Made by a program: the position numbers and the translations under genes. A stretch of DNA of 63,184 bases, the filler included, from Globobulimina sp. (lineage: Eukaryota): the NCBI GenBank assembly GCA_003354225.1. It is 17 parts of 17 records of this genome, joined end to end, with 100 filler letters (N's around TTAATTAATTAA, not from the genome) between each part and the next. Parts side by side here need not be neighbours in the genome. Positions count along the whole stretch, not along the records: positions 26,068 to 29,690 come from PIVH01002379.1; 16 more parts are not named here. One strand, given 5' to 3'. The notes below the pieces were generated by a model. It was not told the DNA's origin. It did not search any database and saw only the letters and a list, made by a program, of their open reading frames with translations. Below are positions 25,968 through 57,004 of the stretch, piece by piece (position 1 is the stretch's first letter; each line of letters opens with the position of its first letter).

Positions 25968-26067
25968 NNNNNNNNNNNNNNNNNNNNNNNNNNNNNNNNN
26001 NNNNNNNNNNNTTAATTAATTAANNNNNNNNNNNNNNNNNNNNNNNNNNNNNNNNNNNNNNNNNNNN

Positions 26068-27999
26068 GAGTCACTTTGGGCAATTTCTGAATATTAATTT
26101 CAAAAACATCCTTACTCAGTTAGTAGCATGTCATCATGTCACGTACCTGATACGTTTGTCGAATTACTTTTAGTATCATCCATATCAATGATACTATCGT
26201 CATTATCAATATCGTCATCTTTGTCTTTGCAATACGACGCATTACATCTTGCCCATACTGTTTCAGCCACATTCTCATAATTTGAACAGTGATGCGGCCA
26301 GTGTCCGGTCCAAATATCATCCTTTGTCACTCCATCTAAACAAAATAACAATACGTTCGTTAGTTTTGCGCGGCATATATGATGCATCTCTCCTTCTTCC
26401 TCAATTGTTTCATAATCTCCTTTTAGTATCGGATATTGTTTGAAAAATGCTGCTCGTCCATCGGATGCTGTTTTTCGTGCAGATAACATTGCATTCGATG
26501 TAATTCCATCAGGATTCACATTTTGATACGGCTGAGTCAATTCAGCTCGACCGTCTGTATAAGATGCATGTACAAACAATATAATATGTATACAAACAAC
26601 ACAATAATTAACTTTTTATAATTACTTTACGATGATAACCTGTACCCCATCTAATCGCTTCCCAATTCGCCTCAGACACAGTTGATAAATATTTAGTTAT
26701 GGTTTGATGGATAATTGTTTCTTCCGCTGCCATTACTTTCTTTGTGTATATATTGCTCCAAACAACATGCAGGTCTTTGATTATTTGATTTTGTGCCAAT
26801 ACCTGAGCAATGTCACCAGATTTATCTGCTTTTGTCATATGCGATAATGTTTGGCCAATTTGTTTTATTTCATTGCAATGTAACGAGTGAATTAATTCAA
26901 TCGTTCGTTTCCTGATTCTATACTTATTCATTCTGCTCATTCCAGATGTCGGCTTTCTTACATTTATAGTTTGTTTTTGCGAATCTCTGTATTGTTGGTT
27001 TCGTTTTTGTAATGCAGATATTTTTTTATTTTGTGAACTAATTTTATATTGTTTACCAATGCACCGTTTCCGATATTTTTCCGCTGCATTTTTATTATTA
27101 TTGTTGTCATTTACTTTTGTTTTTAAAATGGCGATTTGTTTTTGTGCTTCTTGTAATTGGGCAGATATCCCACTGTTTTGCTGTGTCAATGTTAATATTT
27201 GCTCACTAAATTCACGGGTCACAGACGTCGGACTCACAGATGTCGGACCCACAGACTTTGGACTGTCACAATTTGTATCTAATGAAAATAAAGGCACTGT
27301 CTGTATTCTTTCTTGTTTATATAAAAATTTATTCATATTCTTGTCCGTTACTATAATTTTATCATATTTCTCGCATCCGATTGACACACATAATGCCTTG
27401 CCTTTTGAGTTGGTTTTTGATGATCTTCGTCTACGTCGTCCGGAAGCTATTGGTGTGATGGGGGTACACTCTCTCACAGAACAAGCAAATTGTTCGCCCA
27501 TATTCACATCAAACGAATCAGATTTCGATGTTGTTGTATTATTTAATATTGTTTGCACATGATTTAGTTCGAGTAATGATGACTTGTGATATGTTGAGTT
27601 GATGTAAAAATAATATAATTTCCGAATTAATTCCTTATATTTTAATATTTGTGTCGGTAATAAATTGTTGGGCGGATAAATAAGCGTTGCTGTTTTATCT
27701 GATAATTCTATAGAACCATCTTTCTCGCACAGCAACGTAAGCATACGCTCGAAATTAATTTTTAAAGCACTTACTCCAAAATAAGTCTTGAATGCATCGC
27801 ATAATGTCGTTGGTGATGGATATGTTCCTTTGCCGGGAGTGATTTTATAATTTGATTTTTTGGATCCGATGAATATCGATATTTTTTGTAATCCCGGAAT
27901 TGAGAATGTCGTCGGGTTTCCTTTCGAATATTTCTGATACGGTGTCAGTTTGGACTTTTGTGTTGACTTTGGAGGCTTTCTGATCGTTTTTTGAGCCAT
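26068..27999 (-). CDS. Candidate Transib/RAG1-like transposase, N-terminal portion (2 introns, 3'-truncated)
   Basis: Basic N-terminus and coiled coil, then RKPTSGMSRMNKYRIRKRT...LSHMTKADKSGDIAQVL...ITKYLSTVSEANWEAIR...CRAKLTNVLLFCLD, resembling in order the DNA-binding/pre-RNaseH motifs of Transib/RAG1. Introns ~26555..26612 and ~26087..26144. Coding status is well supported; the family assignment is by eye only. Confidence 0.4.
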
Positions 28000-28195
28000 T
28001 TTCAGATATTTCAGAAATTCAGATATTTCAGATATCGCAAAAAATCTTGAAAACTGTTTTTTATGGTGAAGAATGGCAAGGATCAATTTTTTATTACACG
28101 CAAAGGTATCACAAACATTAATTTAGTTTATTACAACAATATCGACGCTCAAAGTCGCAATTTGAAATTTGGCCATATTTCAGAAAATGTTCCAC

Positions 28196-28233
28196 TTTTT
28201 TTGTTACATTTCAAAATCTGACAACATATTGTG
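28196..28233 (-). mobile_element. RSS-like putative transposon end: CACAATA-22 nt-ACAAAAAAA
   Basis: Heptamer at 28233..28227 and nonamer-like at 28204..28196, pointing towards the candidate transposase about 200 nt downstream. Confidence 0.3.
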
Positions 28234-28262
28234 TCACATATGACACGTTTAACTACATTTCT

Positions 28263-28961
28263 TCATATTTGAAGAGCTTTATTGCTGACTGTCATACCTA
28301 ATGATAACGGCATGTTATATGCTTTTATGTTTCCATTTAAATCTAAGATGCTATAACGAACCCAGCTGTTTTCATAGTAAATAAAATTTGTCCACAATAT
28401 TAAATATGAGTTATCAAAGCATATTATATTTGTAAATGACTGTTGGAAGAAATATTCAGATGCTTTGAATGGAGGAGACCAGGTTTGAGATGATTTATTG
28501 TTATAAAATATATTGCATTGAATGCTGATATTATATTCGTTGTTTGATTGTGGCTCTTGATAACATGTTATAATATCCAATGTTTGTGGTGAAATACATG
28601 AGGCAGACGATTCTAAAAAACCATTGAAATATAAATTGGATGTTTCTTGATTTGGTAAAATGGAGGATAATGATGGATTGTTTGGGTTTTTGTATTGTTG
28701 GATTTTTGAGTCATATACGTTGGATCAGAAAGAATATGATGTATTGGAAGAAGATAACGGAAGAAATAAATAATTGTATGGTGTGATGGTTGCAGGCGTT
28801 GGATCAAAATATGTGGTAATGATACAAGGTTGTAAGATTCCTGATCCATACGATGCAAATTGTGAATTTAATTGCGTTACATCAGTTATATTGGTAATGA
28901 TGGATAGTCCAATGCAAGAGATGAGTGTTAACAGAGATAATGATAGCAAATAGTTTCTCAT
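28263..28961 (-). pseudogene. Secreted protein with a single in-frame TGA
   Basis: MRNYLLSLSLLTLISCIG signal; SYSF*SNVY at 28725..28727; the frame stays open to 28263. Confidence 0.6.
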
Positions 28962-28974
28962 GTTGGAAAAAAGA

Positions 28975-29690
28975 TTAATGTAAAAAAAATAAAAAAGGGT
29001 TTTTCGAGTTAATTTTGTCATTTGGAACAGTCGCTGTTATAGTATATTCTGCAGAACCTCTGTAATTTGAAGCAACCGGAACAATTGCATCGCATAAATA
29101 TTTCCATAAAACACCCAATGATTTATTATTATGATGCAATGCAACTTCTTTTCTATTTACATCTGCAACAAATTTAAAGATATCATTTTCTTTTAATGCT
29201 GTTGTTGTGACTCTGCCTTTTGTGCCATTGCAAACTTTCAATGATGTTGCATTAATAGATGGTCCAAATGTGAAATACTTTTTATCTGCTACATGACAAT
29301 TATAATTCATTTGATCAATTTCCTTTGCATCGACAAAGCCAATCCAAGAGTAATATGAACATTTATGCACTCGAACACTCCATTCAAATACATCATGATT
29401 TTGTTTTTTGACCACATAATCTGCAATACACGCTGCTGTCATTTGTTTTGAATATTTTATTCTTTGATTACTGACAAATGTTATTCCATTTCCATGATGT
29501 TTTCTATCCCAACACAGCAGTCTTTGTTTCCGCAACGTTAACGTTGCGACCCGTATCACATTGGAATATTGTGTAAAACCAATCTGTTGATAGCATGCTC
29601 GAGCACAGAAGTTATACTTTGAAGTTGGACGCAATCCTTTAACTACAACCTTATGATCACCATCATTCCCATCCAACTCTACTACTTTTG
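28975..29690 (-). CDS. FN3 + SPRY/B30.2 domain protein, 5'-truncated
   Basis: VKGLRPTSKYNFCARA...GFTQYSN (FN3); FEWSVRV...WIGFV...ENDIFKFVADVNRKEVALHHN (SPRY). Confidence 0.8.
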
Positions 29691-31515: not shown

Positions 31516-31568
31516 GATTGAAAACTAATGTTTTTCAGATACACTATCTTAGTGTTGCTGCAACATCC

Positions 31569-33227
31569 ATGTCACAACGTGGTATGATACAAACATCCAT
31601 GCAAACCGCTGAAGGTGGAGATGAATTAAAAGCTTTTTTATTTTTAAATGAGGACAAATTAAAATCAAAAGCAACGACACTCAAAATCCATAAAGCATTA
31701 ACAAGGAATATAATCGATAAGGATGATTTAATGAGTTTAAGTGAAATTGATTTGAGAGAAACCCTTCAATCATTGGAGTATGATGATAACGGCGATAAAT
31801 TAAAATCATTGGAAATTGGTCGATTAATAAATGTCATCAAAACAACACCAGATTCTGAAATATTTAAAGCAAATAATACAAAATCATCAACAGTCATTGT
31901 TGTGACCCAAACAGTTCAGGAACAACAAGCCATAAATAAAATTGATTCAAAAAAACAAGAAACCTTAAAAATATTAAAAAAAATAAACAATGATATTGCA
32001 GCACTAAATACCGACACTCAAAATGCCAAAAATATCATAAATAATAATTTTGATGACATAATAAAAAAATCGAATGAGCAAAGAAATAAATTATTAAACA
32101 ACATTGACAACGTTGCAAGCAGTAAATCATCAAAATTATTGACACGACAAAAAGAATTACAAAGCTATCATAATAAATTAATTGAGTCAAGAAAGTTGAT
32201 AACAAATTTATATGCAGATACATCTTATGATGCTGTTAAAAGGCAACATAAAATTATTGAAATTGCAGAAAAATCAATTGCTGTTCTACAATATGTTGAG
32301 ATGACAAAGTTTTGTCTAGATTTGGATATTAGAGATGTATTAAATTTATTAACCAAGACAGGATCGGTCAGCTTTGGTCTATCCTTCCCACCAAACATTC
32401 AAATTGGAGCAATAACCAGCTCTTCTGCGGATATTATATTGTCGAAAAATGAGAAAAATAACAGTTCAGCTTTAAAACCAAGTGGATATAAACATAAATA
32501 TGCAGAAATTACGGATAATTTTGATATAAAATCGGATGATGATGATTTGAAATTAGATTGGCAAAGAGGTGCAACTCATGCAGATGCAAAGAAATATACA
32601 ATGAAATGCCTTAAACCGGCAACAAAATATTTAGTGAAAGTGGCAACGCGCAATAAAAATGGATATGGAGCATATACAAGCGCACAATTTCAGACGACGA
32701 CAGGTCGGACAGGATTAACTTTTTCAATTTATAATAAAAAGTGGGTGTCAATGTTGAAAGGTAACACTGAATTTGTAGCGAAAAATAGTGGGATTGCAAA
32801 TAGAATAGCTACGTCTGCAGTTGGTTATAGCAAAGGTTATTATGAATGGAAAATTAAATGTATTCATGATTCTGGCTCATATCAGGCAATTGGTGTTATT
32901 TCTGACTTAAAGCAAGTTTCGCAGATGACAAATCGATGGTTTGGTAGCGGAAGCGGTTATCAATATTATTGGTATGGTTATCAGAATAAAAAAATATTTT
33001 CATACTTGAGTGACGTAAATCAAAATATAGTTGAACAAGTTGATGAACAATGGGGAACTGGTGATATTATAACAATAATGTTGGATTGCGATAATTCAAG
33101 AATGGGATTTAAAAAAAATGATAGATTTATTGGGAAAATGTTTGATATTCAATCGAATGTAACATATTATCCATGTTTAGCTTGTTGTGGTGCTCAAGAT
33201 CATTATATTACTGTTACTGATGTATAA
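31569..33227 (+). CDS. SAM-like + coiled-coil + FN3 + SPRY (TRIM-like architecture)
   Basis: DDLMSLSEIDLRETL; long coiled coil; LKPATKYLVKVATRNKNGYGAYT; GYYEWKIKC...IGVI...WGTGDIITIMLDCD...YYPCL. Confidence 0.85.
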   Translation: MSQRGMIQTSMQTAEGGDELKAFLFLNEDKLKSKATTLKIHKALTRNIIDKDDLMSLSEIDLRETLQSLEYDDNGDKLKSLEIGRLINVIKTTPDSEIFKANNTKSSTVIVVTQTVQEQQAINKIDSKKQETLKILKKINNDIAALNTDTQNAKNIINNNFDDIIKKSNEQRNKLLNNIDNVASSKSSKLLTRQKELQSYHNKLIESRKLITNLYADTSYDAVKRQHKIIEIAEKSIAVLQYVEMTKFCLDLDIRDVLNLLTKTGSVSFGLSFPPNIQIGAITSSSADIILSKNEKNNSSALKPSGYKHKYAEITDNFDIKSDDDDLKLDWQRGATHADAKKYTMKCLKPATKYLVKVATRNKNGYGAYTSAQFQTTTGRTGLTFSIYNKKWVSMLKGNTEFVAKNSGIANRIATSAVGYSKGYYEWKIKCIHDSGSYQAIGVISDLKQVSQMTNRWFGSGSGYQYYWYGYQNKKIFSYLSDVNQNIVEQVDEQWGTGDIITIMLDCDNSRMGFKKNDRFIGKMFDIQSNVTYYPCLACCGAQDHYITVTDV

Positions 33228-48402: not shown

Positions 48403-51400
48403 AAAAATGAGATAACTTGGAAGAAAAATAATAAAGTTTTACTCAGATACGTCATAAAAGGGTTCGGTACCGACCTCTCATTATGACCCGTCCAATAAAA
48501 GAAATAAATGGCGGCGAGGCCACCAAAAAAAACAAAAACAACTAACCATTCGTGCGATTCCTCGCATGCTGAACATACACCGGTTGCACTTAAGGTCTCT
48601 GAATAGCCCTCTTTGCAGGCACCGCATAGCACAACTTTTGGATCACGGTTTGGCGCACATAACGTAGCTGTATCATTAAACAAACAGCCTTCTGGAACAT
48701 TGCAGCAATATCCTGTACACAAACACACAAACATTTAATATATTCATCACCAATATACATATTTATATAACATATACCTGGCGGGCAAAGTGCAGTGTTT
48801 ACGTAAGAGCCCGGATCCTCAAAAACAGTGTCATCGTCTGTTTGCAATCTGCGTCGTGTCACATTACTGGTGACATTGCTATAATTACCGTCGAATGCAG
48901 ATTCGCCTTGTTTTGCGTACCAATTCTGATCCACTTTAATTTCATTGCCACCGTAACAAAATAATCCCTGTTCACATGTTCTACATTTATCTGTTTTCAA
49001 TGTATACTTATCACTGTCGCACAATTCGCACGAAAATAAATTCGGATCAATTTCATTTGGATGTTGATAGTATCCCGGATCGCATTCTTTCACTCGTAAC
49101 ACAATATTAATAGTCTCAGCCACACCGTTTTGATCCTCCAATACAATGGTACCGAGGGCATTTTTTTTACCAATACTTATTACTAACGGCACCAAATAAT
49201 ATTCGCCATTGGCAGAAGGTGTGCCTTCCGGTGTAATCACAGTGGCTTTATCTGCTATTACATATATATTATATTCCGTTGTATTCAACGGATTTTCAAA
49301 TGCATCCCATCCAAATACATAAAATGTGACGGAGGCACCTGGAATATCACCAACCTCTACATCCGGTATATAATCATCCACAATCGAGCAATCTTCACAC
49401 GTTTCATAATCTGGATTCCCTGTCGGCAAATTGGAATATTTTTTACATTCAGCTACGATCATCGAGGCACAGAAATTATTTAAGGTAGAACCAGCGGTCA
49501 CACATTCCTGCCCTTCGCATACCACACTAAATGGCGCGTCGCCTTCTAATATCTTATGATGTCCGTCCGTTACATATAAATACACCGACGGCCCTTCCCC
49601 TTCTTCCACTGAATTGTTGACAAAATTCACATCAAATACCTTGACACAACTTTGCCGCGATTCTGCAGCGGCATCCACACCACTTCCATGCAAGCGTACA
49701 AAGGCTCCGCCGCCATCATACTCAGCGGAATTTTGTAGCAAATTGGTATAATACATAGAGAGACATAAATCATACTGCGGGAAGGTTGTAGACTCCGTGG
49801 CTTTCATACCACCGCCATCATGCGATGCTGTACACTGTCGAACCTGCGTATTATGCAGAGTTAAAGCTGTATCTTTTAACCATATACAGCCTCCATCCCA
49901 GGCATAACCATGTGCTATATCAGAATTGCCGATGTATATATTTGTCCCATGCAGATAGATACCACCACCAAAACCATCCGATGGAGTGCCAAATGTTTGA
50001 TTAGTGTTATTACTCATTGTCAGATCAAATGTCCCTGCGGTTGTAGTAGTGTGCAGTGTCATATTTGTGATCGATATCGCATTTCGAAATATCAATCCAT
50101 CATTTTGCGACCACAGCAGTTCAGTCATTATGGAGCCACCTTTTGTATTTTGTGCAATGTTGTGGTACATTTGAATATTTGTCATTTGTAAGATACTCAT
50201 TTGAATGGAATCTGAAGAATATCCGGTTTGAGCCATTCCTCTGTAGATAGCGCCACCGCCTCCAACAGCATAATTCATATCAAATATTGTATTCGTTATG
50301 GAAATGGACACAAATTCATAGACATTCTCATCCGTTTCTATTGTAATCGCACCACCTTTCCCTTGACTGATGGCATTGTTTATAAAATACGAGTTTGTGA
50401 TGGTTACAAAGGGCGGTGTCCACTCAAATAATTGCTTAATCCGCAAATTATATTGCTTTCCAGATTGCGCTTTATTTGTATAGATCGCAATACAATATGT
50501 GCCACGCTGCTGTCTGCCTATATTTGTTCTAAAAACACCAAAATCTAATAAAGTCGAAGCACATCCGTTTCCTGTATCAGTTGGTGGTGTCGCAGTAGTG
50601 CTTGTCCATAACATCGAAGCGACGTCATCTGCCCGACTCCAGCCAGTAATCATTGTGTTCGAATCATCATTCAACTCCACACAAATGGAATTAAACGCAT
50701 TGAACACAGTATCCACAGTTACAAACGATACGTACTCTTTGCTAAAAACGCTACCGAGCTCATCTGGTGGGAAGCCACATAAATGTTGATAAACGTTAAT
50801 GAAATGATCAATGGGAAGATCTGGGAATGAGACACCCATCGATAATCGGGTTGCATTGTTACGATCAAATGCAAATATTACAAATTCATCAGTTATATCC
50901 TCTTCGCTTTCGCCAATTGGAGCGGATGAGGGCGAAACAGTTGGCGCATTTGTTGGCGCAGCGGTTGGCGCATTCGTATCACATAAAAAAGCGATACTTA
51001 GTTGGCCATCGTAGTCAGATGCGACTTGGGTTAAGCTGACCGCATCAGATAAGGTTACCAATTCAACTTGAGAATCAACCTCTGGGTTATTTGAAGAATC
51101 AACATTGATAAGTAAACGTTGATTGTCACCCGATAACTTAATACTGCTAGGTTGCTTGCCTTGGGTAAGAACAGTTGATGAAACTGCTTGTTGATCATTA
51201 TAAATATCTAAGAAAAAATCAAAAGAAATAGTGGGATCAATTCTTAAATAATTTGGTTGACTAGCATTATTTTTTTCTAAAAATAATGTTACAACATTTT
51301 CATTTGCCTCTAACAAACCATTATCACTAAAAGTTTCGCCATTAAAACTAAGCCACTCACTCGTTTCACTAATTGCATAAATATTTGCCTCGTCACTTGT

Positions 51401-52024
51401 TACAATAAAGTCATTAATGACCTTCCCTTCATCCAATAATTCAGGATGATATTCATGAGTAAGTGTCGTTGTAATTTGGTCATCACCAAAGTCATTTACT
51501 TGTGGGGTATAACGCTTGAAACTTGCAGTACTATTATCTAAAGCAAAAAGTGTATTGGCTTGTGAAGCAATATCAACTTCACTGGTAAAATAAGCGTTTG
51601 GACCATCCCAAAATTGTCGTATAAGATTTTCATCGGCAAACTCCAACGTTTGTGTTACAACAAAGTAGCGACCAAATAAACGCACGATGTCTGTTGGCTC
51701 AAATGAAATATCAAAGTCGAGAATTTCAATAAAAGTATTATCGATAAGATTAATTTTATATCGATGAGGCACTTCAGTTGCTGTTTTTACTGCTTTAGCT
51801 AATAAATAATCACCGCTGGGGTGTATTAGCAACTGTTCTAAAACGGTATTTTCAGGCGAAACCACTAAGGTTGATTCAACCTCACCCGTATATTGATGAT
51901 AAGTAATCAGTTGATTTCCTACTCCAACATAAAACACAGGCTTTAAAGGTGAAACGACCATTTCTTTGTTATTAATTTCTAATGGGGTAAGTACTTTGTT
52001 TTCAACAACTAAGTCAGTGTTATA
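48403..52024 (-). CDS. Large surface protein: bacterial-like beta-propeller region, PT linker, GGA/GGG beta-helix repeats, Cys-rich region, TM; truncated at both ends
   Basis: NNAISQGKGGAI, NYAVGGGGAI, GFGGGIY, DGGCI, DGGGM repeats; CDPGYY...CELC...CYGGN; GTATAT..TACAG intron near 48716..48777 into GYCC...VLCGACKEGYS and a TM helix. Confidence 0.75.
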
Positions 52025-55844: not shown

Positions 55845-57004
55845 TGGACAGTGTTGAAAGAAAAAGAAAAATATTATCACAAACTCAGATATTATTTGCT
55901 GAAAAGTTGGAATTAAATCTAGTAACAAATGATAAAATTGCTGTTTATTTTGTTGTTAATGATTTACAGAGTTTGTTATCACAAATTGGTATTATTACAG
56001 ATGGAAAAAATATTGCATTGCCCCCATTCGTTACCGTGACAAAAGTTACGTGTAATTCGGCAAAAATAACAATAAGAACAAATCCAAACAGTTTGTGATA
56101 TTTTTGATAACTTTTTTCAACATAAAAAAATTAATAATATAATTTTATATGCATTATATGCAATAAATAGAAATGTCACAAACTGTTTAAATTTTATCTA
56201 AAAGGCGATGGAAAAGAATGTGTTGGATATAAAATAGAATATGTTGAAAGTACTGATGATATAAAAGATGATGAAAAGTTGGATTGGAAATCTGTCAATG
56301 TACCGAGCAATAACAATGAATATAATATTAAATCATTACGGAGAAACACAACATATTCACTTCGCGCAAAATCACAAAATAAAAATGGATTTGGAATATA
56401 TTCAAAATGCATTTCATTTAAGACAGAAAAAGCAGATTTAAACGCTTTATTTGTAAACCAAATGATATTTGATCGCGAAGTATGTCCTCCGAAACTTCGA
56501 GTTATTAATGACTTTGAAGTGAGAGCCATTGCAAAAGATTGTCATCGTAACAGCATAAAATTAAAATGCGCGATGCCAACCAAAGCAAACAACGAATATA
56601 ACTTTTCATTTATTTCATGGACTATGAATATTAAAGCAAGTGCATGGGGGTCAAATTATCTTTTTTTAGTTGGTGTGGTATCGAATAGAACCATCAATTT
56701 TGCACAAGGGTTACATAGTGGATTAATTGATGGATATGGAATATCAGGACATAATACATATGTGTATCGTGGTGATGCAACTGACGTAGTTGATAACAGT
56801 TATAAAGTGCCTGCAAAAGATGTACCAATTACGATTGATTACGATATCACAAATGCAAAATTAATATTTTTTCAAGAACCTAAGAAGCGTCAATTTTATT
56901 CAATGTCATTGCCAAAAGATAATAATATTACCCATTGGTATCCGTGTGTTGTGTTGCGGTCTCTTAATGACAGTTGTATTGTCTCCAATGTGTCTGTGAG
57001 GTGA
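55845..57004 (+). CDS. Coiled-coil + FN3 + SPRY-like protein, 5'-truncated
   Basis: IKSLRRNTTYSLRAKSQNKNGFGIYS; FLVGVVSNR; HWYPCVVL. Confidence 0.8.

Follow-up and report, generated by a model that had tools for sequence, protein, structure and literature searches.

The window analysed here, a 63,184-base stretch from a Globobulimina sp. genome assembly, consists of 17 unrelated contigs of 3,620-3,625 bases each, sorted longest first and joined by artificial linkers (N44-TTAATTAATTAA-N44). As the contigs are unrelated, neighbours in the window are uninformative about each other. This report concerns the contig at 26068-29690, which follows the linker at 25968-26067 and in which an intron-bearing gene on the minus strand lies just inside the end of a repeated element, with a host gene just outside it. 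An earlier sequence-only reading had proposed that a transposon of the RAG1/Transib type begins here, with an end resembling a recombination signal sequence (RSS). Logan contigs of four public runs (X1-X4), drawn from two samples and two studies, were aligned to this contig; X1, X3 and X4 represent one organism and X2 a second, closely related organism, whose flank contig is 98.8% identical. The features of the element and its gene are listed below, where P0001 denotes a foraminiferal relative of the encoded protein.

26068-29690: contig with the finding; gene on the minus strand
28196-28233, minus strand: outer 38 bases of the element, with the terminus at the C of 28233, CACAATA at 28233-28227, a 22-nt spacer and ACAAAAAAA at 28204-28196
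28077-28234, no strand assigned: terminal block, recovered as a separate assembly piece of 158-159 nt in X3 and X4
28000-28035, no strand assigned: subterminal tandem repeat, 4.1 copies of the 9-nt unit TTTCAGATA, immediately before the ATG at 27999
28231-28246, no strand assigned: 6-4-6 palindrome GTGTCA/TATG/TGACAC across the junction of element and flank
26613-27999, minus strand: exon 1, 462 full codons and the first base of a split codon
26555-26612, minus strand: intron 1, 58 nt, GTTAAT..ACAG, phase 1, placed by colinearity with P0001
26147-26554, minus strand: exon 2, encoding the conserved block ..KLTNVLLFCLDGVTKDDIWTGHWPHH.. and, after it, an acidic tail of low complexity
26087-26146, minus strand: predicted intron 2, 60 nt, GTACGT..TCAG, with the frame open across it
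26068-26086, minus strand: start of exon 3, of which 19 bases precede the contig end

Position 28233 is a genuine end of a multi-copy, probably mobile element. At least five contigs (three from X1, one from X2 and one from X3) agree with the window up to 28233/28234 and then run on into at least four different sequences, so that homology does end sharply at the CAC, the outcome for which the sequence-only reading had proposed a check. Depth changes at the same place. In X1 it is 22-46 over 26068-28245 against 3.1-4.3 over 28246-28729, or about 7-10 times higher on the gene side, and in X2 the bin 28125-28245 has a depth of 79.2 against 27.1 for the X2 flank contig; these values are contig means and are not convertible to copy number. 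Furthermore, X3 record 18 (1071 nt) fits 28077-28234 and is unlike the window thereafter, and X4 record 25 (159 nt) fits that stretch alone. The loose ends of Logan contigs described here are among the matches listed, with 19 further ones. No common target was seen in the flanks of five copies.

The copies are not all equivalent. The only X1 contig over 26495-27752 (depth 29) has a deletion of 19 nt at 27618, which shifts the frame of exon 1, and four substitutions; because the window version is colinear at 27618 with P0005, another foraminiferal relative, it is the abundant X1 variant that is frameshifted. Contigs of X1, X2 and X3 diverge at 27845, and a diverged subfamily (7 differences in 90; 8 in 127) therefore shares only the terminal 389 nt (27845-28233). 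Less than 99% likeness is found in 18 of the 34 X1 pieces. Taken together, near-identical copies, a sharp boundary with different flanks and deleted or broken derivatives point to a transposable element, a combination typical of such elements in general. One X3 contig shares the terminal 32 nt (28202-28233), continues with about 10 extra bases and then returns to window-like AAAATGTTCCA..; it may represent either a subfamily or the other element end with different spacing. Two further candidates were discarded. An X1 joint from 28019 to 28202, only 22 letters long on its shorter side, probably reflects misplacement on ATATTTCAGAAA, a motif that occurs more than once, and the X2 flank contig was rejected as an empty site, its match stopping at 28297 and not at 28234.

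The inward-pointing CACAATA, 22-nt spacer and nonamer described in the sequence-only reading are present at 28233-28196. In the excerpts of PMC1131882 used here (the other papers are likewise cited from excerpts), the Transib end consensus is given as CACAATG, a spacer and AAAAAAATC, 38 bp in total, with the CAC and nonamer positions 5 and 6 essential. Compared with this consensus, the terminal 38-mer agrees in six of seven heptamer positions, has a spacer of 22 nt and carries an A-rich nonamer with A at positions 5 and 6 (PMC1131882). Since the terminus is fixed by independent data, the frequency of such a layout given a CAC is the right question. Among CAC sites in the window, 8.4% have a heptamer within one mismatch and 3.1% a nonamer-like word at spacer 22 or 23, and both fit at 3 of 1493 sites (a chance of 0.2% given CAC). 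The layout lends real but modest support to a Transib-type end, modest because other CA(C) element ends are often A-rich too. The bare motif is about as common as expected, as the sequence-only reading itself had cautioned: when CAC was required, up to two mismatches were allowed in the rest of the heptamer and up to two in the nonamer, and the spacer could be 11-13 or 22-24 nt, the window contained 10 look-alikes as good as this one or better, and 200 Markov simulations gave 9.0 +/- 3.2. As such, the look-alike is notable only because its CAC coincides with an independently mapped repeat boundary.

The subterminal repeats noted earlier are found at 28000-28035, with a further copy (ATATTTCAGAAA) at 28175-28186. 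These 9-nt repeats could be protein-binding sites or motifs of the 5' untranslated region or promoter. The hairpin that had been placed at the outer edge is likewise present, reading from 28246 to 28231, and it was not borne out as a feature of the element: because it spans the junction of element and flank, and other copies are flanked differently, it is specific to a single insertion. Such hairpins are nothing rare, with 39 perfect ones of the 6-4-6 type in the window.

The gene runs inward on the minus strand from an ATG at 27999, 234 nt inside the element end, through two short introns (one of them predicted), and its 604 codons without a stop are open at the contig end. This agrees with the earlier claim of an element end pointing inward to an intron-bearing gene. 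The spliced open reading frame (ORF) that had been described from 27999 with five peptide motifs is also there, all five lying in the minus-strand ORFs at 26608-28122 and 26139-26615. The minus-strand gene is real, being free of stops and colinear with a relative derived from a transcript, and 27999 is probably its true start codon because P0005 begins MA.., like the window protein. The exon 1 product starts with an N-terminal domain and continues through a coiled coil into a conserved helical domain, which bears the basic RK..S...YR.R motif. Within exon 1, a 15-nt tandem repeat of 3.1 copies at 27219-27264 encodes a repeated PTSV-like pentapeptide in a non-conserved linker. The splice site of intron 1 is fixed because P0001 is unbroken across the intron position; the codon over the junction is AAC (Asn), giving ..RKVIIK-N-GRAELTQPY, in agreement with P0001 from Bolivina (..RKVIIKNGQAQLTEPY). 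The ORFs of three environmental relatives, P0002-P0004, stop exactly at the intron 1 position, as they would if an intron interrupted them there too.

A full HMMER scan with exon 1 as the query (1.84 billion representatives, E <= 0.001) gave seven matches, six of them real relatives. P0007 was rejected as a relative, being a repetitive protein of 888 amino acids (aa) matched via 11 short stretches. The foraminifer Bolivina argentea is the source of P0001 and P0005, which belong to a protein set derived from its transcriptome; P0006 is from Nonionella stella, as is P0008 from the same cluster, and P0002-P0004 are encoded on environmental contigs of 1-3 kb. The N-terminal part of exon 1 is matched by P0005, P0006 and P0008 and the C-terminal part by P0001-P0004, with 29-48% identity over the matched parts (for P0001, 48% on exon 1 and 56% on exon 2). 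All are fragments of 193-335 aa, and their domain order is that of the window protein, namely an N-terminal domain (about residues 1-250), a coiled coil, the conserved helical domain, the exon 2 block and the acidic tail. The invariant positions of the helical domain are R, R.R, H, S, D, N, N, I..Q...K..S..S and HR.V.I, and the peptide motifs noted earlier are conserved positions of this small protein family. Beyond these relatives, word-indexed protein searches gave no match for exon 1 at near lengths, only P0001 itself for P0001 at near lengths, and no match for exon 2 and P0001 at longer lengths (582-2000 aa). In the ESM Atlas, exon 1 had no usable match and the exon 2 matches scored 0.83, below the lead threshold. 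Searches for related loci found none in metagenome, viral or prokaryote genome contigs.

The claim that this protein is RAG1/Transib-like found no support in Pfam, PDB sequence or profile searches. The Pfam scans gave no RAG1 or transposase family, either for the window exons at E <= 1 or for the six members of a family alignment (A2) at E <= 10, and exon 2 matched no Pfam entry. Similarly, two single sequences and three profiles searched against the PDB sequence set at E <= 10 gave no RAG1, RAG1-like or Transib chain. The only matches there were, with exon 1, a coiled-coil protein, with exon 2, S100 proteins (E about 0.1) and, with the A2 and A4 profiles, alpha-helical proteins (coiled coils included) that have no relation to RAG1 (E >= 0.0095); the A3 profile had none. 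Structures of Helicoverpa Transib, RAG1 and an amphioxus RAG1-like protein should be in this PDB set. From the shallow family alignments, AlphaFold2 produced two poor models (predicted local distance difference test, pLDDT, 44.2 and 51.5), neither of them good enough for comparing folds, and Foldseek on the first gave nothing at E <= 0.001.

A DDE core had been placed beyond the contig, a phrase to be taken literally: the contig ends at 26068, where the linker begins, the X1 contig (record 1) likewise stops at 26068, and any second D and E would be encoded past that point. Two features count against a reading of LDGV as the site of the first catalytic Asp: the corresponding residues in P0001 are LDAV, and in both proteins a helix-like block and an acidic stretch of about 50 residues follow. 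The likeness of the family motifs to the RAG1 N-core is a presumed one and serves as a lead, no more. The nonamer-binding region of RAG1 spans residues 387-480, with conserved motifs at both ends, and the basic motif and the LS..S..W..IR motif of the present family lie about 92 residues apart, near that span (PMC1131882, in excerpt). RAG1/Transib membership is unproven and on balance doubtful: the end layout is the one defining feature found, and the searches with the 604 residues present on the contig gave no RAG1/Transib match.

Outside the element, the contig carries a further gene.

28263-29036, minus strand: flanking host gene, an ORF pair forming one gene, outside the element, with a hydrophobic N-terminus

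This gene reaches its stop codon 29 nt short of the element end, and its depth in X1 is 3-4 against 22-46 on the element side. It had been described as apparently disabled, a view that the runs speak against: the in-frame TGA at 28727-28725 hangs on one base (28726 C>G on the plus strand) and reads TCA (Ser) in the contigs of X1, X2 and X3, that is, in all three covering runs. The gene at 28263-29036 is probably intact, with the TGA being an assembly or allele difference. Further out, X2-X4 cover 29093-29690 at very high depth and with numerous variant pieces. ORFs with fn3 (and SPRY) domains occur on three contigs of the window, at 28978-29688, 31518-33224 and 56171-57001, and appear to form a large gene family with multiple copies. 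Neither Rfam nor tRNA scanning gave a match on the contig 26068-29690. The other window contigs carry ordinary eukaryotic genes (G-alpha, SLC12 transporter, WD40, fn3-SPRY and MFS transporter), and no transposase family was found in their 22 long ORFs. One of them is filled nearly whole by an uninterrupted ORF of 1144 codons (48593-52024, minus strand), which has no Pfam family at E <= 0.001.

The stretch 26068-28233 very probably belongs to a mobile element of some kind. In our assessment it is likely to comprise an end, together with the 5' part, of a CA(C)-ended DNA transposon present in multiple copies, most plausibly of the cut-and-paste type, lying 29 nt downstream of the host gene. The transposase would be the intron-bearing protein, its downstream part or a neighbour, and it may recognise the CAC end, perhaps together with the 9-nt repeats in the subterminal region, and mobilise full-length and deleted copies alike. 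The introns speak against a retroelement, as the coding regions of long terminal repeat (LTR) and long interspersed elements are intron-less; LTRs, moreover, begin with TG and end with CA. A retrotransposon was rejected because the gene has a pair of spliceosomal-type introns (colinearity with a transcript-derived relative confirms one of them), the end is CA and not TG, and the Pfam scan of the window exons found no reverse transcriptase or gag family. A hAT transposon was ruled out on its termini, which have G as their third base (YARNG-type) according to the Figure S7 legend of PMC1131882, where the present terminus has C. Several points weigh against a DNA transposon. Six real relatives in 1.84 billion representatives are few for a mobile family, although the lineage is poorly sampled, and the Pfam, PDB sequence and profile searches found no transposase domain in the 604 residues. 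The contig carries one end only, with no pair of terminal inverted repeats (TIRs), target site duplication (TSD) or empty site shown, and the depth figures are contig means, which cannot give copy number. No second copy occurs in the other 16 contigs of the window, which amount to only 60 kb and so say little, and among the X1 contigs listed none bridges 28213-28280, so that the junction rests on assembly.

That last point, and the several places at which the window copy differs from the main X1 contigs, would also be explained by an assembly or chance artefact, such as a chimeric contig with no biological end at 28233. This is extremely improbable, as the boundary falls at the same base in three runs from two studies and the gene is conserved and intact. 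A family of repeated host genes or a recently duplicated segment, in either case not mobile, with a duplicated block that would simply stop at the boundary and a CAC layout due to chance, would account for a protein with no transposase signature and for the expression of relatives in two foraminifera, and the window has other multi-copy families, such as the fn3-SPRY genes on three contigs and the high-depth stretch at 29093-29690. Such a family or duplication is nevertheless quite improbable: across two samples, no fewer than four flanks adjoin the same boundary base, the X1 variant of highest abundance has a frameshift, some copies share only the terminal 389 nt, and the boundary coincides with a rare Transib-like 38-mer. 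The narrower proposal of the sequence-only reading, a Transib/RAG1-like transposon encoding a RAG1-like transposase with a long N-terminal extension and a DDE core just past the contig, is unlikely, though less so than these two. It draws on a CAC terminus that is confirmed as a real element end, on the heptamer, spacer and nonamer agreements matched by so few CAC sites of the window, on a gene near the end that points inward, and on the spacing of two conserved motifs. Against it stand the Pfam and PDB results and the LDGV block, which is followed by the acidic low-complexity stretch with no further conserved blocks. The short subterminal repeats are, in addition, more reminiscent of CACTA elements than of Transib. 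CAC ends are, moreover, common to the whole CMCT group of transposons (PMC12730594, in excerpt), and the 604 residues found here hold no core, yet a whole Transib transposase has about 700 aa (PMC1131882).

A CA(C)-ended DNA transposon with near-identical copies, one of them intact, would offer a handle on the genome dynamics of foraminifera and their relatives. To our knowledge, the mobile elements of these organisms are almost undescribed. Among the literature matches listed, there was no report of Transib or of the window protein family in foraminifera or other Rhizaria, and the only co-mention of 'Transib' concerns Merlin elements. As an outside chance, the locus could represent a young, possibly active RAG1/Transib-type transposon of a foraminifer-like rhizarian, with RSS-like 38-bp ends and an N-terminal region of about 600 residues, or else the founder of a new CA(C)-ended superfamily whose protein lacks detectable kin beyond its lineage. 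Should the missing half prove RAG1-like, a rhizarian branch would be added to the history of the RAG/Transib recombinases. Should it be unlike any known transposase, it would define a new superfamily with RSS-like ends, and the end layout would then not be diagnostic of RAG ancestry. According to excerpts of PMC9435367, RAG/Transib recombinases have already been traced to a pelagophyte alga, in the form of a RAG-like transposon in Aureococcus, and to bacteria, with Transib-like proteins in bacteria, fungi and plants. A true Transib/RAG-like element here would therefore still not be the first outside animals, and a position 'far outside animals', which had been stressed earlier, is less striking than it seemed.

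Among known systems, the CMCT lineages (EnSpm/CACTA, Mirage, Chapaev, Transib, Plavaka and allies) share 5'-CA..TG-3' ends, and Kyakuja too has CA(C) ends (PMC12730594). The present element has the 5' CA(C) terminus at 28233, seen at one end, and resembles this group further in its large protein and intron-containing gene; unlike in the group, there is no match to the Pfam transposase families of CMCT elements. The TSD of 2-5 bp and the C(2)C and H(3-4)H motifs that also mark the group would lie beyond the contig end. As far as its sequence goes, the end fits the CMCT group and, within that group, the 38-bp layout fits Transib best. With Transib and RAG-like transposons it has in common the CAC end and the 38-bp heptamer-22-nonamer layout (PMC1131882), an inward intron-bearing gene and deleted copies that look non-autonomous. 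It differs from Transib in 604 residues with no sequence or profile likeness to RAG1/Transib, and in having about 600 aa before any possible core where the whole Transib transposase has about 700 aa (PMC1131882). The further defining features of Transib and RAG-like transposons, an RNase H DDE domain with CC/HH zinc motifs, a 5-bp TSD, a second TIR and a RAG2-like kelch gene, would be off the contig. Finally, the members of the foraminiferal family from Bolivina argentea (P0001 and P0005), Nonionella stella (P0006 and P0008) and environmental samples (P0002-P0004), known as fragments without genomic context, share with the window protein the same order of domains.

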